From Candidatus Heimdallarchaeota archaeon (GTDB taxonomy: Archaea; Asgardarchaeota; Heimdallarchaeia; JABLTI01), in the NCBI GenBank assembly GCA_030614005.1, contig JAUWKS010000040.1, positions 1 to 29,877 of the forward strand: DNA of 29,877 bases, written 5' to 3'. Position numbers and translations under genes: made by a program. This document shows, piece by piece, positions 2,398 to 11,288 of the stretch. Every line of letters starts with the position of its first letter. Position 1 is the first letter of the stretch. The notes under the pieces are model-generated. The model had not been told where the DNA came from, ran no database searches, and saw nothing but the letters and a program-made list of their open reading frames with translations.

Positions 2398-2775
2398 GTG
2401 AACTCCTTGGCAATAGAGTACAATGGTTATTTGTTACACGGAAATGATGGAGATACAATAGACGAGATAATTAATAATGGATTATTGAAAGCAAGAAAAT
2501 ATGTTTGGATTTCAGGTGCAAAAGTTAACGATTTCATTGTTGTTAATGAACACACAAAAGAAGGGGAACAATTATCCAAGAAGATCTATCGTATGGCACA
2601 AAGATGAGTGAAATTTAAATTCATATTGACGCCTCATGAAAAAACCAAAACTTACAAAAATGCTAAAACTTTTTATCAGAAACTCAAGGGAGTGGAGAAC
2701 ATTGAATTCGAATTCTGTTACGATATGCATATGAAAGTAATCATTGTAAATTACTCGAATATTATAGTAAACTGA
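2398..2775 (+). pseudogene. PLD-family paralog A, copy 1: 5' half only, with an internal nonsense codon
   Basis: 101 of 118 codons encode the same residue as in 5701-6054. GGA>TGA at 2605-2607; the frame continues VKFKFILTPHEK...HMKVIIVN and then becomes unrelated. No GSAN half. Confidence 0.9.
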
Positions 2776-2790
2776 ATAGATTTGATAAAA
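2740..2790 (+). repeat. 51-bp motif, copy 1, at the PLD-A1 breakpoint
   Basis: ATCATTGTAAATTA-N11-TAGTAAACTGAATAGATTT-G-ATAAAA. Matches 11238-11288 at 13/14 in the left block and 19/19 in the right block. Confidence 0.8.
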
Positions 2791-2818
2791 AATAGAAAAA
2801 AAAGAAGCAATTGAAGTG

Positions 2819-5299
2819 CTATTTCTTCTTTGCTTCAGATACTTCTTCTGGAATAATTCCTTCTATGGGCAAGGCTTGCAAACAAGCAGGGCATTTTCCT
2901 TGAGTTTTCACCCATTCTTGAAGATGATTCAAATGTCCTTTCGCTTCACAAAGGGAACAGCTACCTAAAGCTTCACCAAAGGAAATAGGTAGTTTGCATA
3001 CAGAGCAAACAAGTAATTCTTTCTTGCAATCAGAACACTCTGTAACATTACTTTCTATTGGATAGCCACAATAATGACATGTACTATGCTTCACTTGATC
3101 CAAGCTTTTCACTATCGAATTTAGCTTTTCACCTTTAAGATCTTTAGGAATGATAACTTCATTGCCTTCTATATAGAACACTTTTTCACCTGATAAATTG
3201 ATAATCCATTTCTGCAGATCAAGTGTATTCTTGAACTCTAGTAATTGAGCCATTAAAACCAAAGAAATCTTACTATAACTATTAAGAATTCTCTTTAGCT
3301 TTTCTTCAAGTGATGCATTTGTAGAAACTTTCTTGGATGCTTGTAATGCACGCTTTTTTTTGGTACTTAATTCTTTCTTGCCTTTCTCCTCTTCTAGTGG
3401 TTTATAGTCATCTTCTATTATTGTTTCCTTCTTTTTCTTCGAAATCACACTAGAAATGATAATAATAGCAATTATTCCTATTGTTAAACCACCACCAATT
3501 ACCCACCATAACCACACAGGCATTACTCCAGGAGAACCATTTATGGGATAATCATGAGCATCATTTGGACTAGTATTTGCAGCTAATTCTACATCATCAT
3601 TATAAGTATCTCCATCCGAATCTGCTAAGAGTGGATTAGTATGAACATACCCTGTTGCGTTTGCACCTGGGTTCGATGGATGATACATTCCGAGAATTTC
3701 TTCTCCATCAAGTAGATTATCCGAATCTGTATCGCTATTTAATGGATCTGTTAATATGGTATATACTTCTAATCCATCAGGTAATCCATCTCCATCTGTG
3801 TCTAGTTTAGTAGGATCAGTGAAGTAGGTGAATACTTCTATTCCATCAATGAGATTATCTGCATCTGTGTCTGCATTAGTCAAATTAGTTCCATAAAATA
3901 CTTCCCAACCATCTGGTAATCCATCTCCATCTGTATCCGGAAGGTTTGGATTCCCATTAAAGAACTCTTCAGTCATATCATCAATGAAATCACCATCAGA
4001 GTCAATCTGACCAGTATGGAAAGGACTGCCACGACAGCAATACCATTGTTGTGGACCCGATTGACTAATCCCAGTAAAAGTGAGACAGTTAATCTCGTGA
4101 TAGGTAATAGATTCTTCTACATAGCATCTACAAACAATTAGATCAGCTATGTCATCACCATTCACAAAACCAGATGCCATGTAAAGAACACTTCCTCCAA
4201 GATCTTGAGAAAATTGCTCATGACCAGAGGAATTAAAACAGTATAAATAATTATCAGCATATTGTACAAGAATTTCTAAATCCTGACCACCATCAATGTT
4301 GGCAACAAGAAGGTCTCCATTCATGGAAAATCCTTTGTTTAAACTCCAGAGACCAGAACCGCCAAAACCATCAAAGCAATTAAGCGAACCGTCGTCTGAA
4401 CCACAAATGATTTCTATATGACCATCGTTATCAAGATCAGTAATTATTGGGTCAGAGCTAACAGTACCACCTGTTCCCATCACCCATTCTCTTTCTCCCA
4501 AGTGATTGATAACATGTAACTTTTGATCTGTAGAACCAACTAGCACCTCTTTAGTACCATCCTCATCAATATCACCTATTGCAAGATTAGTGCTAATTCC
4601 CTCGATATATGTGTACTCCCATTCTTTAGCACCTTCATGATCCAAACAGATGGTTTTGTTATCGGAAGTACCATAAAGAATCTCAAAAGTACCATCGGAA
4701 TCTAAATCAGCTAATGCAGTAACTGTGAAAATAGTACCAGAATTAGTGTATTCCCATGTTTTGGTGCCATTACAATTAAAACATTGAACTTCACTATCGG
4801 ATTTTACAATAATTTCAAGATAGCCATCTTGATCCAAATCTGCAATCGAAGGAGAATCTAGCATATTATAACCGATACCTCTTTCCCATAATATTGTACC
4901 AGAATAATTGAAACAATGAAGAGCATATCTAGAAGTAATTAAAATTTCTAGCTTGCCATCTTTGTCAATATCAACTATTGTGGGAGAACACCTACCAGAA
5001 GTGGCAAATTCATATTGCCAGAGAGTGTTCCCTAAATTATCTAAACAATAAAAATAACCATCTTGTGAAGTTACCAATACTTCAGGTGTTCCATCTAAAT
5101 CTAGATCAACAACAACAGGATAATAACCCCCAAAATCCGTTAAGGTGAAATTCCAAAGAAACTCAATAGTAGTAGAATCTATAGTTAAATTACTATCTTG
5201 AATATTCGTTTCTGCAGAATTGTCAACTGTGAAAATTTCTGATGAAATAAATAGTAAAAAAAGGAAGGAAATGCCAATAAATTTTTTGTAGTTCAACAT
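2819..5299 (-). CDS. Cell-surface receptor-like protein: signal peptide, FG-GAP/PQQ-type beta-propeller, Ca-binding DxDxDG repeats, TM helix, cytoplasmic zinc ribbon plus RING-like domain
   Basis: Repeated DLDxDGxxEI motifs; DTDGDGLxDG repeats; TM LWWVIGGGLTIGIIAIIIIS followed by KKKK; C-terminal CHYC..CSDC..CSVC..CSLC-x4-H-x2-H..W..CPAC. Confidence 0.85.
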   Translation of the reverse strand: MLNYKKFIGISFLFLLFISSEIFTVDNSAETNIQDSNLTIDSTTIEFLWNFTLTDFGGYYPVVVDLDLDGTPEVLVTSQDGYFYCLDNLGNTLWQYEFATSGRCSPTIVDIDKDGKLEILITSRYALHCFNYSGTILWERGIGYNMLDSPSIADLDQDGYLEIIVKSDSEVQCFNCNGTKTWEYTNSGTIFTVTALADLDSDGTFEILYGTSDNKTICLDHEGAKEWEYTYIEGISTNLAIGDIDEDGTKEVLVGSTDQKLHVINHLGEREWVMGTGGTVSSDPIITDLDNDGHIEIICGSDDGSLNCFDGFGGSGLWSLNKGFSMNGDLLVANIDGGQDLEILVQYADNYLYCFNSSGHEQFSQDLGGSVLYMASGFVNGDDIADLIVCRCYVEESITYHEINCLTFTGISQSGPQQWYCCRGSPFHTGQIDSDGDFIDDMTEEFFNGNPNLPDTDGDGLPDGWEVFYGTNLTNADTDADNLIDGIEVFTYFTDPTKLDTDGDGLPDGLEVYTILTDPLNSDTDSDNLLDGEEILGMYHPSNPGANATGYVHTNPLLADSDGDTYNDDVELAANTSPNDAHDYPINGSPGVMPVWLWWVIGGGLTIGIIAIIIISSVISKKKKETIIEDDYKPLEEEKGKKELSTKKKRALQASKKVSTNASLEEKLKRILNSYSKISLVLMAQLLEFKNTLDLQKWIINLSGEKVFYIEGNEVIIPKDLKGEKLNSIVKSLDQVKHSTCHYCGYPIESNVTECSDCKKELLVCSVCKLPISFGEALGSCSLCEAKGHLNHLQEWVKTQGKCPACLQALPIEGIIPEEVSEAKKK

Positions 5300-5700
5300 C
5301 TAGTTAAAGTCTCCAATAAGATGACTAATTATTCTATATAAATTAATTTCGATAGTAATTTTTTGTTTGAACACAGAAAAAAAGAAAAAAGTTGAATCGA
5401 AAGTCTTGATACTAACTTATCGGTATTGCTTTAAAACCTGAAGAGTTAGACGGAAGAAATCAGTTATTATATGATATTTCTTCCAACTATTATATTATTT
5501 AATCTGTAGTTTTCTATCTAAAAATGATAATATGCAAAGTGTAATGATTAATGAACGGCACCAATTTTCCTTCATTGATTTATATTTCCTTGTTCTTTAG
5601 GAACTAAACCCAAACATTTTGATTTGTGGACAGGTAAAAAAAGGTTAATATCAAACTAATTGATGAACCTATAGCTAATACAAGATTTGTTTATTACAAG

Positions 5701-6120
5701 GTGAATAGATTGGCAATAGAATACAATGGTTATTTGTTACACGGAAATGATGGAGATACAATTGATGAAATTATAAACAATGGGTTACTGAAAGCACGAA
5801 AATACATCTGGATCTCTAGTGCTAAAGCAAATGACTTCATAGTTGTTAATGAGCGTACAAAGGAGGGTGAGTTACTCAGTAAGAAAATATTTAGACTAGC
5901 TCAACGAGGAGTAAACTTTAAATTCATTTTAGCTCCTCATGAAAAGACAAAAACCTACAAAAATGCTAAAACGTTCTACCAGAAATTACGAGATATAGAT
6001 AATATTGAATTCGAATTTTGTTATGATATGCATATGAAAATAATTATAGTAGATTCACTGACTATCCCATACTTTAAGACGTTTTGTGAATACAATTCAG
6101 CATTAGAGGAGAGTAATTAA
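5701..6120 (+). pseudogene. PLD-family paralog A, copy 2: open frame but truncated right after the HKD motif
   Basis: HMKIIIVD is followed by 21 unrelated residues. That tail contains the GAGGAG SD of the next gene, and the stop TAA abuts the ATG at 6121. No GSAN motif. Confidence 0.75.
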
Positions 6121-10561: not shown

Positions 10562-10563
10562 AA

Positions 10564-10797
10564 ATGAATGTAAGCATGAAGAAAGAAGTAGCAGAAGAAT
10601 TAGTCACGTTCAAATTGAGACAAATTCAAATATTAATAGAAGAAATATTACAGAGATGGAATGAGAAAGTAATCGAAGATTTCTTAGAGAAAGCAAAAGA
10701 TGGCACTTTACATGAAGCAGAAAATGATGCAATAGAATTGAAACAACTAGTCTTTGAAGAAGAAAAACTTCAGAATTTATTAAAAAAATTAGTGTAA
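10564..10797 (+). CDS. 77-aa putative antitoxin, copy 2
   Basis: MNVSMKKEVAEEL...ENDAIELKQL; paralog of 9762-9995. Confidence 0.75.
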   Translation: MNVSMKKEVAEELVTFKLRQIQILIEEILQRWNEKVIEDFLEKAKDGTLHEAENDAIELKQLVFEEEKLQNLLKKLV

Positions 10798-10799
10798 TT

Positions 10800-11170
10800 T
10801 TGGAGGAGAATAGTATTTTTGCTTGTGATAAACTCCTACAAGCAAGAAAATTACTCGTAGATCAACTTCCATCAGAGATTTATGAAATCATAATAGATAA
10901 AATTCGACCAATTCTTATAGTAAAATTTACTAAAAGCATTATAGTACATATTCGTTACAATAATTTTGATGAATATAGTTATCAAATTATTTTTTCAAAG
11001 AAAAAATTTGACAGAGTTAGATATGATAATTATGATGACAAATGGGATGTAGTATTAAATCCACATCATATGCATCTAGAAATGAAAAATCAGCAATTAA
11101 AAGTCCAATGGTTGGAAACCCTGAAAAGGATATGCTAATTCTTATTAAAGTCTTAAAAAAATTATTTTAA
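10800..11170 (+). pseudogene. DUF6516/TumE-like putative toxin, copy 2, with a 1-nt deletion near 11076
   Basis: RYDNYDDKWD...PHHMH, then a frameshift. The shifted frame NEKSAIKSPMVGNPEKDMLILIKVLKKLF* aligns with the copy 1 C-terminus. Length 371 vs 372 nt. Confidence 0.75.
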
Positions 11171-11237
11171 ACTTTTAATTAAAAGTATTTTTTTGTAACG
11201 ATTATTCTTCAAGTCTTTTAAACTATGTTTTACATTC

Positions 11238-11288
11238 ATCATAGTAAATTATGCAAACACTCTAGTAAACTGAATAGATTTAATAAAA
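11238..11288 (+). repeat. 51-bp motif, copy 2
   Basis: ATCATAGTAAATTA-N11-TAGTAAACTGAATAGATTT-A-ATAAAA; matches 2740-2790. Confidence 0.8.

Follow-up and report, generated by a model that had tools for sequence, protein, structure and literature searches.

A 51-bp motif from the 3′ end of a short PLD gene marks breakpoints of a hypervariable gene island in Heimdallarchaeota-type Asgard archaea

Background

Integrative elements flanked by attL and attR sites enter the end of a gene and carry a replacement copy of it (e.g., the islands at tRNA and tmRNA genes, or SXT/R391 in prfC), the integrase gene of SSV-type elements is partitioned on integration in archaea, and homing-endonuclease genes insert at codons of conserved catalytic motifs. 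Transcription terminators follow many unrelated genes and are recognised by a T-run on the transcribed strand in archaea, or by a hairpin with a T-run in bacteria. Enzymes with an HKD motif work through a covalent phosphohistidine intermediate; to our knowledge PLD/HKD proteins are not known as recombinases, and we know of no homing endonuclease of the PLD family. Cassette arrays with attC sites have been described as well, archaeal integrons included (Ghaly et al. 2022, PMC9668308). Here we report on a 51-bp motif that occurs twice in a stretch of DNA of 29,877 bp (hereafter the window), which is the whole of contig G000:C25 from the genome of a Candidatus Heimdallarchaeota archaeon (3.6 Mb, 90% complete, 31% G+C).

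The motif is a sub-feature of a larger locus made up of PLD genes and cassettes. A preliminary description of the window had proposed it as a second attachment site or cassette end, linking a broken PLD gene (PLD-A) to the interior of a downstream repeat array, and this reading was partly supported by the analysis given below. Gene flow into Asgard archaea is central to ideas on the origin of the eukaryotic gene set, and few mechanisms for it are known.

Results

The motif is made up of the last 12 codons, the stop codon and ~25 nt of trailer of a short, 125-aa PLD gene, which we call A-type. Its two full copies in the window (2740–2790 and 11238–11288) are identical at 43 of 51 positions and share 14 bases, N11, an exact 19-mer, N and ATAAAA with the same spacing, as had been described. 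In the frame of PLD-A, copy 1 reads IIVNYSNIIVN followed by a stop, and the other copies encode this peptide with conservative replacements and have their stop codon at the equivalent position. The PLD-A of the window is interrupted by one in-frame TGA (2605–2607). When its reading, with this internal TGA treated as a residue, was used as the query of a homologue search, intact 125-aa orthologues with the same tail were found on the ENA contig L082 (P0001) and on the 541-kb Heimdallarchaeota contig L079 (P0005), and on both contigs the DNA past the stop is the motif trailer. What had been taken for a break in PLD-A is where a short paralogue, intact in other genomes, naturally ends, and the motif is this 3′ gene end with its trailer, not foreign DNA next to a broken gene. 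Copy 1 is this gene's own end and copy 2 is an orphan.

The same query also retrieved full-length A-type PLDs of 184–188 aa. The hallmark of the PLD/HKD superfamily is HxK(x)4D followed by (x)6GSxN in the PLDc_2 domain, and the full-length paralogues match PLDc_2/PLDc; the PLD proteins of the island are small, single-HKD and Nuc/DrmC/DpdK-like, with DrmC/DpdK/NucT matched weakly and below the cut-off. Over their 5′ 117 codons the short forms are 79–84% identical to the full-length A-type PLDs, HMK included, in most of them the HKD Asp is replaced by Asn, and the GSxN half is replaced by a tail of 7 residues. The full-length A-type genes have the same core codons as the motif, followed by the normal PLD 3′ part, and the core block is recognisable both in the motif copies and in truncated A-type genes. 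Directly left of the motif lie the nucleotides that are best conserved among all PLD paralogues (the C-Y-D-M-H-M-K codons). Among three short forms the ratio of nonsynonymous to synonymous substitution (dN/dS) was 0.08–0.13, with 56–62% of the synonymous sites changed; such low values may mean that the short gene is functional or that its 5′ part is renewed from full-length genes, and both would fit. Repeated independent truncation of A-type genes was considered and set aside: trees lacked resolution and did not reject a single clade of short forms.

The motif is locus-specific and not dispersed. A profile (model R1) built from ten copies (alignment A4) was run, as the preliminary description had proposed, against 12 genomes of the family, and gave four strong hits (49–66 bits), two in the genome of the window (G000) and one in each of two congeners (G005:C47 and G009:C5), all of them on contigs that carry the PLD locus. 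All other hits scored ≤ 17 bits; two of these weak hits (G005:C55:210662 and G004:C146:958) turned out to be orthologous unrelated sequence and not copies. The genome of the window holds two full copies and one partial copy, all on this contig and on one strand; the partial one (copy 3) has 0 mismatches to a 24-nt degenerate pattern, the reversed control of which had 0 matches in 60 genomes. No inverted copy of the motif was found. In both congeners the copy shares its contig with PLD genes and with the 71-nt array repeat, and lies upstream of a B-type PLD gene, by 2.0 kb in G005 and 3.6 kb in G009. Exact-pattern scans of the whole collections added metagenome copies on L068, L071, L077 and L072/L075 (the last two G009-like), and the true copies in the genome and metagenome collections are a handful, all in Asgard-type contexts. 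Bacterial 21-mer matches (L064, L065) and 7 of 12 metagenome matches were discarded as chance, with the left part absent. The strict pattern had 0 matches in viral contigs; the loosened one had > 119, none with the left part, and these belong to a phage gene. The preliminary description had set its own reading against a terminator or dispersed repeat that follows ordinary genes throughout the genome, and what was found is a motif confined to one locus and absent after ordinary genes. Two or three copies on one strand of one contig are likewise not the distribution of a dispersed repeat or a miniature inverted-repeat transposable element, which would come in many copies per genome and in both orientations, with terminal inverted repeats and a target-site duplication.

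Chance similarity in AT-rich DNA can practically be dismissed as the origin of this likeness. The window has only 31% G+C, and an exact repeat of ≥ 19 nt did arise in 3 of 200 first-order Markov simulations of it, but the best 51-nt identity in simulated windows (10-mer-seeded, 40 runs) was ≤ 35/51, which never approaches the 43/51 observed, and the recurrence of a 60-nt module at the same locus in two congeners and several metagenome contigs already refutes chance. In addition, at ≤ 3 mismatches the left-block pattern (core and first tail codons) is found on the + strand at 2740, 6043 (the A2 junction) and 11238 and nowhere else in the window, three matches where chance would give 0.07.

The conservation of these copies points to constraint on the motif as DNA. 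The 11-mer TGAATAGATTT (2773–2783 in copy 1) is invariant in 10 of the 10 aligned copies, though it overlaps and extends past the stop codon. The 51-nt block is 80–93% identical between lineages, while the synonymous sites of the adjacent gene differ at 56–62% in the same comparisons, and beyond ~65 nt the flanks are no more alike than shuffled sequence. Orphan copies (copy 2 and those of G005, G009, L071, L077 and the solo copy of L081) have no recognisable PLD sequence to their left and are preserved as well as the attached ones. The internal TWGTAAA direct repeat was found as described (2744 and 2765), its 21-bp period being that of two Val-Asn codon pairs, and the 11/14 match reported between the left block and the second A-type gene of the window (PLD-A2) holds for copy 2, the match to copy 1 being 10/14. 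Two further likenesses were rejected: homology of the copy 2 flank to PLD-A, suggestive in gapped local alignment, was not significant against shuffles, and a 10-mer shared by the motif and the start of PLD-A2 (TGAATAGATT) is not conserved at other A-type starts and was put down to coincidence.

No hairpin was found in the motif. DNA folds on both strands of both copies did not beat those of shuffles (–0.3 to –2.2 kcal/mol), the fold of the consensus of 7 copies had –0.25 kcal/mol and zero compensatory pairs, and Rfam 15 had no match at the gathering score across the whole window, which leaves neither an attC-like folded site nor a hairpin terminator nor a conserved RNA structure. Readings as a C/D-box sRNA, a tRNA-fragment att site, or a Bacteroidetes-type or archaeal TATA/BRE promoter were dropped by eye because the boxes were absent or on the wrong strand and the downstream genes inconsistent. 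Both window copies do lie beyond the 3′ ends of antisense genes with hydrophobic N-termini (Table 1), noted earlier as genes for exported proteins, and an element retained where useful as an operator or as a 3′-end signal of the short PLD gene and of converging genes would suit several observations: in 5 of 7 contexts the trailer supplies minus-strand T-runs right behind converging genes, the stop codon and the invariant 11-mer overlap, and the direct repeats are spaced by two helical turns. We nevertheless find such a role improbable, as each genome has the motif at a single locus and no other genes are followed by it, the neighbours of the motif vary in identity and orientation (in G005 and G009 the downstream genes are co-oriented and 230–390 nt away), there is no hairpin, and neither strand is T-rich in the invariant part. 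Only the A-run trailer fits a purely regulatory or terminator role, and this trailer is also the only part that could terminate converging genes. An inverted repeat read from the sequence next to copy 1 (GAAGCAA/TTGCTTC, 2804–2810 and 2830–2836) is followed by T8 on the minus strand.

The motif coincides with synteny breakpoints and with gene gain and loss in the relatives, which bears out the second comparison that had been suggested. Contig L079 and the 930-kb contig L081 are 100% identical to a point ~50 nt ahead of the A-type start codon. From there L081 carries a divergent A-type gene (A′, 133 aa), then a B-type PLD gene and a minus-strand gene of 124 aa, which makes it 1.17 kb longer than L079 in this segment, and near-identity resumes exactly at the left edge of the motif. 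This additional 1.17 kb is bracketed by imperfect direct repeats of ~20–30 nt (~19/30). Its layout (A′, a 63-nt spacer, PLD-B) is like that of A2 and PLD-B in the window, and the window spacer has weak homology to the L081 spacers (p = 0.03 and 0.26). Between G005 and L068 the motif with 45 nt beyond it (91%) and the B-type PLD gene (85%) are shared, while the genes between them and the DNA to the left differ.

Flanks of the motif are re-assorted. There are two types of left flank, an A-type gene or the upstream region of a gene for a ~120-aa protein, and two types of right flank, and all four combinations occur across the genomes: the A-type gene is joined to right flank 1 in L079 #1 and to right flank 2 in L068, and the ~120-aa-gene flank to right flank 1 in the solo copy of L081 and to right flank 2 in G005 (= L079 #2). 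In L081 the ~120-aa-gene flank, which has no significant PLD homology, is also joined via the same I-I-V codons to a spacer and a third B-type PLD gene. The left homology boundary of detached copies falls within ~4 nt in at least five different contexts. Internal subtypes (TACTCG and TATGCG) travel with the right flank, which places the exchange point within the first 12–14 bases. The exact 19-mer pointed out in the preliminary description also moves with the right flank, and the recombining part would be the left 12–14 bases, perhaps together with the next ~18.

Both junctions in the window are bridged by contigs of three public runs, in which Logan contigs cover 2311–3014 with zero differences to the window and span the copy 2 junction (10791–11456 and 11051–11864). 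No joint between the motif copies was seen in the contigs of these runs (cold-seep metagenomes, depth ~3–6). In one cold-seep contig of depth 8, position 2792 is joined to 7576 through 37 letters of other sequence, and no weight was placed on it as a single contig. Departures from the window at 2778, 2809 and 11302, where the two motif modules have their edges, are each seen in one low-depth contig; these too were given no weight because other loose ends are scattered elsewhere, each on one contig.

The order of features in the window (Table 1) is the short A-type gene with copy 1, the minus-strand FG-GAP gene, PLD-A2, a spacer and PLD-B, and cassettes bounded by the array repeat, followed by copy 2 (between a TumE-like gene and the 158-aa minus-strand gene), the last array repeat and the alcohol dehydrogenase (ADH) paralogues. 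Genes of the inserted blocks are PLD-B, the ~120-aa protein of no family, FG-GAP, toxin-antitoxin pairs and similar.

Table 1. Coordinates of the motif copies and of the genes next to them in the window
Feature	Position	Strand	Remarks
Copy 3, partial (tail end and trailer, no core)	1862..1890	+	Intergenic, upstream of PLD-A
Short A-type single-HKD PLD gene (PLD-A), 125 codons	2398..2775	+	Pseudogene here; ends in the motif
Copy 1, core (left block)	2740..2751	+	I-I-V-N codons of the HKD motif; flank exchange point
Copy 1, tail	2752..2775	+	Codons Y-S-N-I-I-V-N and TGA stop
Copy 1, trailer	2776..2806	+	A-runs after TGAATAGATTT; minus-strand T-runs following the FG-GAP gene
FG-GAP/TSP3 exported protein gene	2819..5299	-	Cargo right of copy 1; stop at 2819, 29 nt from copy 1
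PLD-A2, A-type 5′ part	5701..6120	+	PLD reading left ~8 codons after the HKD Asp
Third junction-type site	6043..6064	+	I-I-V-D codons of truncated A2; then a 66-nt spacer and the intact PLD-B start
PLD-B, intact B-type single-HKD PLD gene	6121..6660	+	First copy of the 71-nt array repeat forms its 3′ end
Copy 2, orphan (core, tail, stop, trailer)	11238..11305	+	No PLD 5′ part to the left; profile 49 bits
158-aa protein gene, hydrophobic N-terminus	11434..11910	-	Cargo right of copy 2; stop at 11434, 146 nt from copy 2

The conserved right flank of the island is made up of three tandem zinc-type alcohol dehydrogenase paralogues (12340–15289, minus strand) with 60–80% DNA identity, a trio also present in G005, where the right ADH/ABC flank is syntenic. 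On the left, an amidohydrolase gene (167–1765, minus strand) is split into open reading frames of 141 and 338 aa and may be a pseudogene; this left flank is unlike that of L079 and L081, which have MFS and 112-aa genes. An orphan frameshifted PLD fragment (23720–23830, + strand; approximately residues 113–155, just past the HKD motif) stands 12 kb beyond the array with a 731-aa gene on one side and a minus-strand open reading frame on the other, and a similarly decayed PLD copy is found in G010, 2.4 kb upstream of a full-length A-type gene. Cassettes from 6590–12148 of the window (a 597-aa gene, a HEPN-MNT pair and a TumA/E piece) recur at 84% identity in G010:C29 (L029 13152–18156) in a different order relative to the PLD gene, and therefore the array units move as units.

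An element of approximately AACATCAAAATAGTTGAT is conserved ~60 nt upstream of A-type PLD starts (L079, L081, G009, G005 and L082) and may be a promoter or operator; the identity break between L079 and L081 is located at this element. On the minus strand of G009:C5 (L031/L032, 21627–21455 of a stretch with 10-kb offset) an A-type PLD 5′ fragment of 45 codons continues directly as a TSP3-type calcium-binding repeat (NPLNSDTDGLSD), and 200 nt ahead of the motif copy there is a relic, 22 nt long, of another A-type start. To the right of the solo motif copy (L079 17593–19885; L012 of G005, 6458–8750) the cargo comprises genes for a 295-aa protein of no family, Nmad3 (nucleotide-modification-associated) and a B-type PLD, followed by PDDEXK_4 on the other strand, a set that looks like a defence module.

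Discussion

On balance, and with confidence only a little above even, we read the motif as a PLD-derived joint at which gene modules are exchanged in a hypervariable island, the exchange being directed to the block of HKD codons. The short A-type gene would sit at the left rim of this PLD-anchored island, in one genus of Heimdallarchaeota-type Asgard archaea, and the first 12–14 bases of the motif (the I-I-V-N/D codons of the HKD catalytic motif) would act as the recombination joint, with the 5′ part of an A-type gene, the upstream region of the ~120-aa gene or other DNA as left partner and with the motif tail, or a spacer and a PLD-B gene, as right partner. Under this explanation copy 1 would be a joint still attached to its gene, copy 2 one that became detached through insertion of a PLD-B-led block that was later expanded by cassettes, and copy 3 a decayed relic. 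Exchange would be site-directed and carried out by a trans-acting enzyme that is not encoded alongside, rather than by ordinary homologous recombination. The invariant 11-mer TGAATAGATTT is the putative protein-binding part of the site, with the two GTAAA(T/C) repeats as further candidate binding elements, and the A-run trailer would double as an archaeal T-run terminator for the converging gene. As a candidate attachment site or cassette end the motif had been fairly described insofar as it coincides with breakpoints; no recombinase is linked to it, and attachment as such is presumed.

Several points weigh against this reading, and most of them would suit the main rival account, possible if rather unlikely. 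In it the copies are passive leftovers, 3′ ends of short PLD-A genes without any function as sites, the 5′ parts having been overwritten or cut off when the many PLD paralogues of the island underwent homologous or illegitimate recombination of the ordinary kind, and the similarity of the copies reflects recent spread of the island among related archaea together with coding constraint. The motif is, after all, a gene end, and the C-Y-D-M-H-M-K codons directly to its left are where crossovers between diverged copies are expected. A search with PF00589 in G000, G005, G009 and G010 found no tyrosine recombinase on the locus contigs, with the lone exception of a 58-aa fragment ~65 kb away at the contig end in G009, no recombinase, integrase or excisionase family was found in the inserted blocks, and the motif lacks inverted arms and has no known site architecture. 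The left end of the L081 replacement lies upstream of the A gene and not at the HKD codons, and the repeats flanking it are imperfect, so that homologous recombination could have replaced one allele by another in this event. With dN/dS ~0.1 the short gene may have a function, in which case coding constraint would explain why the first 36 nt are conserved in attached copies; it may also be that the short forms make up one old clade kept by purifying selection, a single clade not being rejected by the trees. Independent events are few, and with two or three of them chance could place the crossovers within the left quarter of a homology of 50 nt; moreover, all the sequences come from metagenome assemblies. 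What passive leftovers do not account for is that orphans with no PLD sequence to their left keep 80–93% identity and the invariant non-coding 11-mer next to unalignable flanks, that the left boundaries in at least five contexts lie within ~4 nt of each other, and that the ~120-aa-gene flank, for all its lack of significant PLD homology, is joined at the same core to two right partners.

It is also conceivable, though we regard it as quite improbable, that the single-HKD PLD proteins of the island are themselves the recombination or homing machinery, cutting and rejoining DNA at sites within their own coding sequence. The site types would then be the HKD-codon block that heads the motif and the 3′-end repeat of the array. 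If true, modules would be inserted into and shuffled between PLD genes without a tyrosine, serine or DDE recombinase, and Asgard archaea would have a new, PLD-based cassette system in which the 51-bp motif serves as one of two types of site. A literature search returned nothing on PLD-anchored cassettes or PLD recombinases.

Taken as an exchange joint, the motif would place the locus among islands that grow and reshuffle, here at joints taken from the coding sequence of a nuclease-family gene and with no conventional recombinase nearby. It is a short, conserved and searchable marker of one joint type, with breakpoints defined at the nucleotide level, and a concrete substrate for asking whether PLD-family proteins or a host factor cut and exchange DNA. 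If only ordinary recombination between paralogues is at work, the motif still marks the left rim of the island.

Comparison with known systems

The closest working likeness of the layout may be that of the displaced gene-end repeats attL and attR. As there, a piece of the target gene, copied in direct orientation on one strand, would stand on either side of inserted DNA; wobble-like positions set the copies apart as if they came from different versions of the gene, and repeated events would leave orphans behind. Unlike there, no integrase is found in or beside the blocks, the blocks are small gene modules, the repeats are imperfect, and the joint is placed at catalytic-motif codons within a truncated gene instead of at the end of an intact one. 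With SSV-type integrases the locus has in common that a gene for an enzyme able to form covalent protein–DNA intermediates is split internally by inserted DNA; here, however, the split gene is one of several paralogues, and no circular element was seen.

Homing endonucleases offer a parallel in that a nuclease gene (PLD-B) is inserted right after the most conserved codons of a related gene, and the mosaic flanks would be typical of co-conversion, but there is neither intron nor intein and any cleavage specificity is only putative. As in integrons, a short unit in one orientation stands between unrelated genes, often of toxin-antitoxin type, and the cassette order varies among relatives; on the other hand, the motif lacks the imperfect inverted repeats R″–L″ and L′–R′ with which attC sites form a hairpin on one strand, no IntI (tyrosine recombinase) gene is present on the locus contigs, and the unit is coding-derived and found in 1–3 copies per genome. 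The terminator hallmarks are shared through the minus-strand T-runs of the trailer alone, the motif being confined to one locus and without a hairpin. Placed among these systems, and lacking the enzyme that usually accompanies such sites, the motif is best described as a junction repeat that derives from a gene end and belongs to a variable island of an unusual host.

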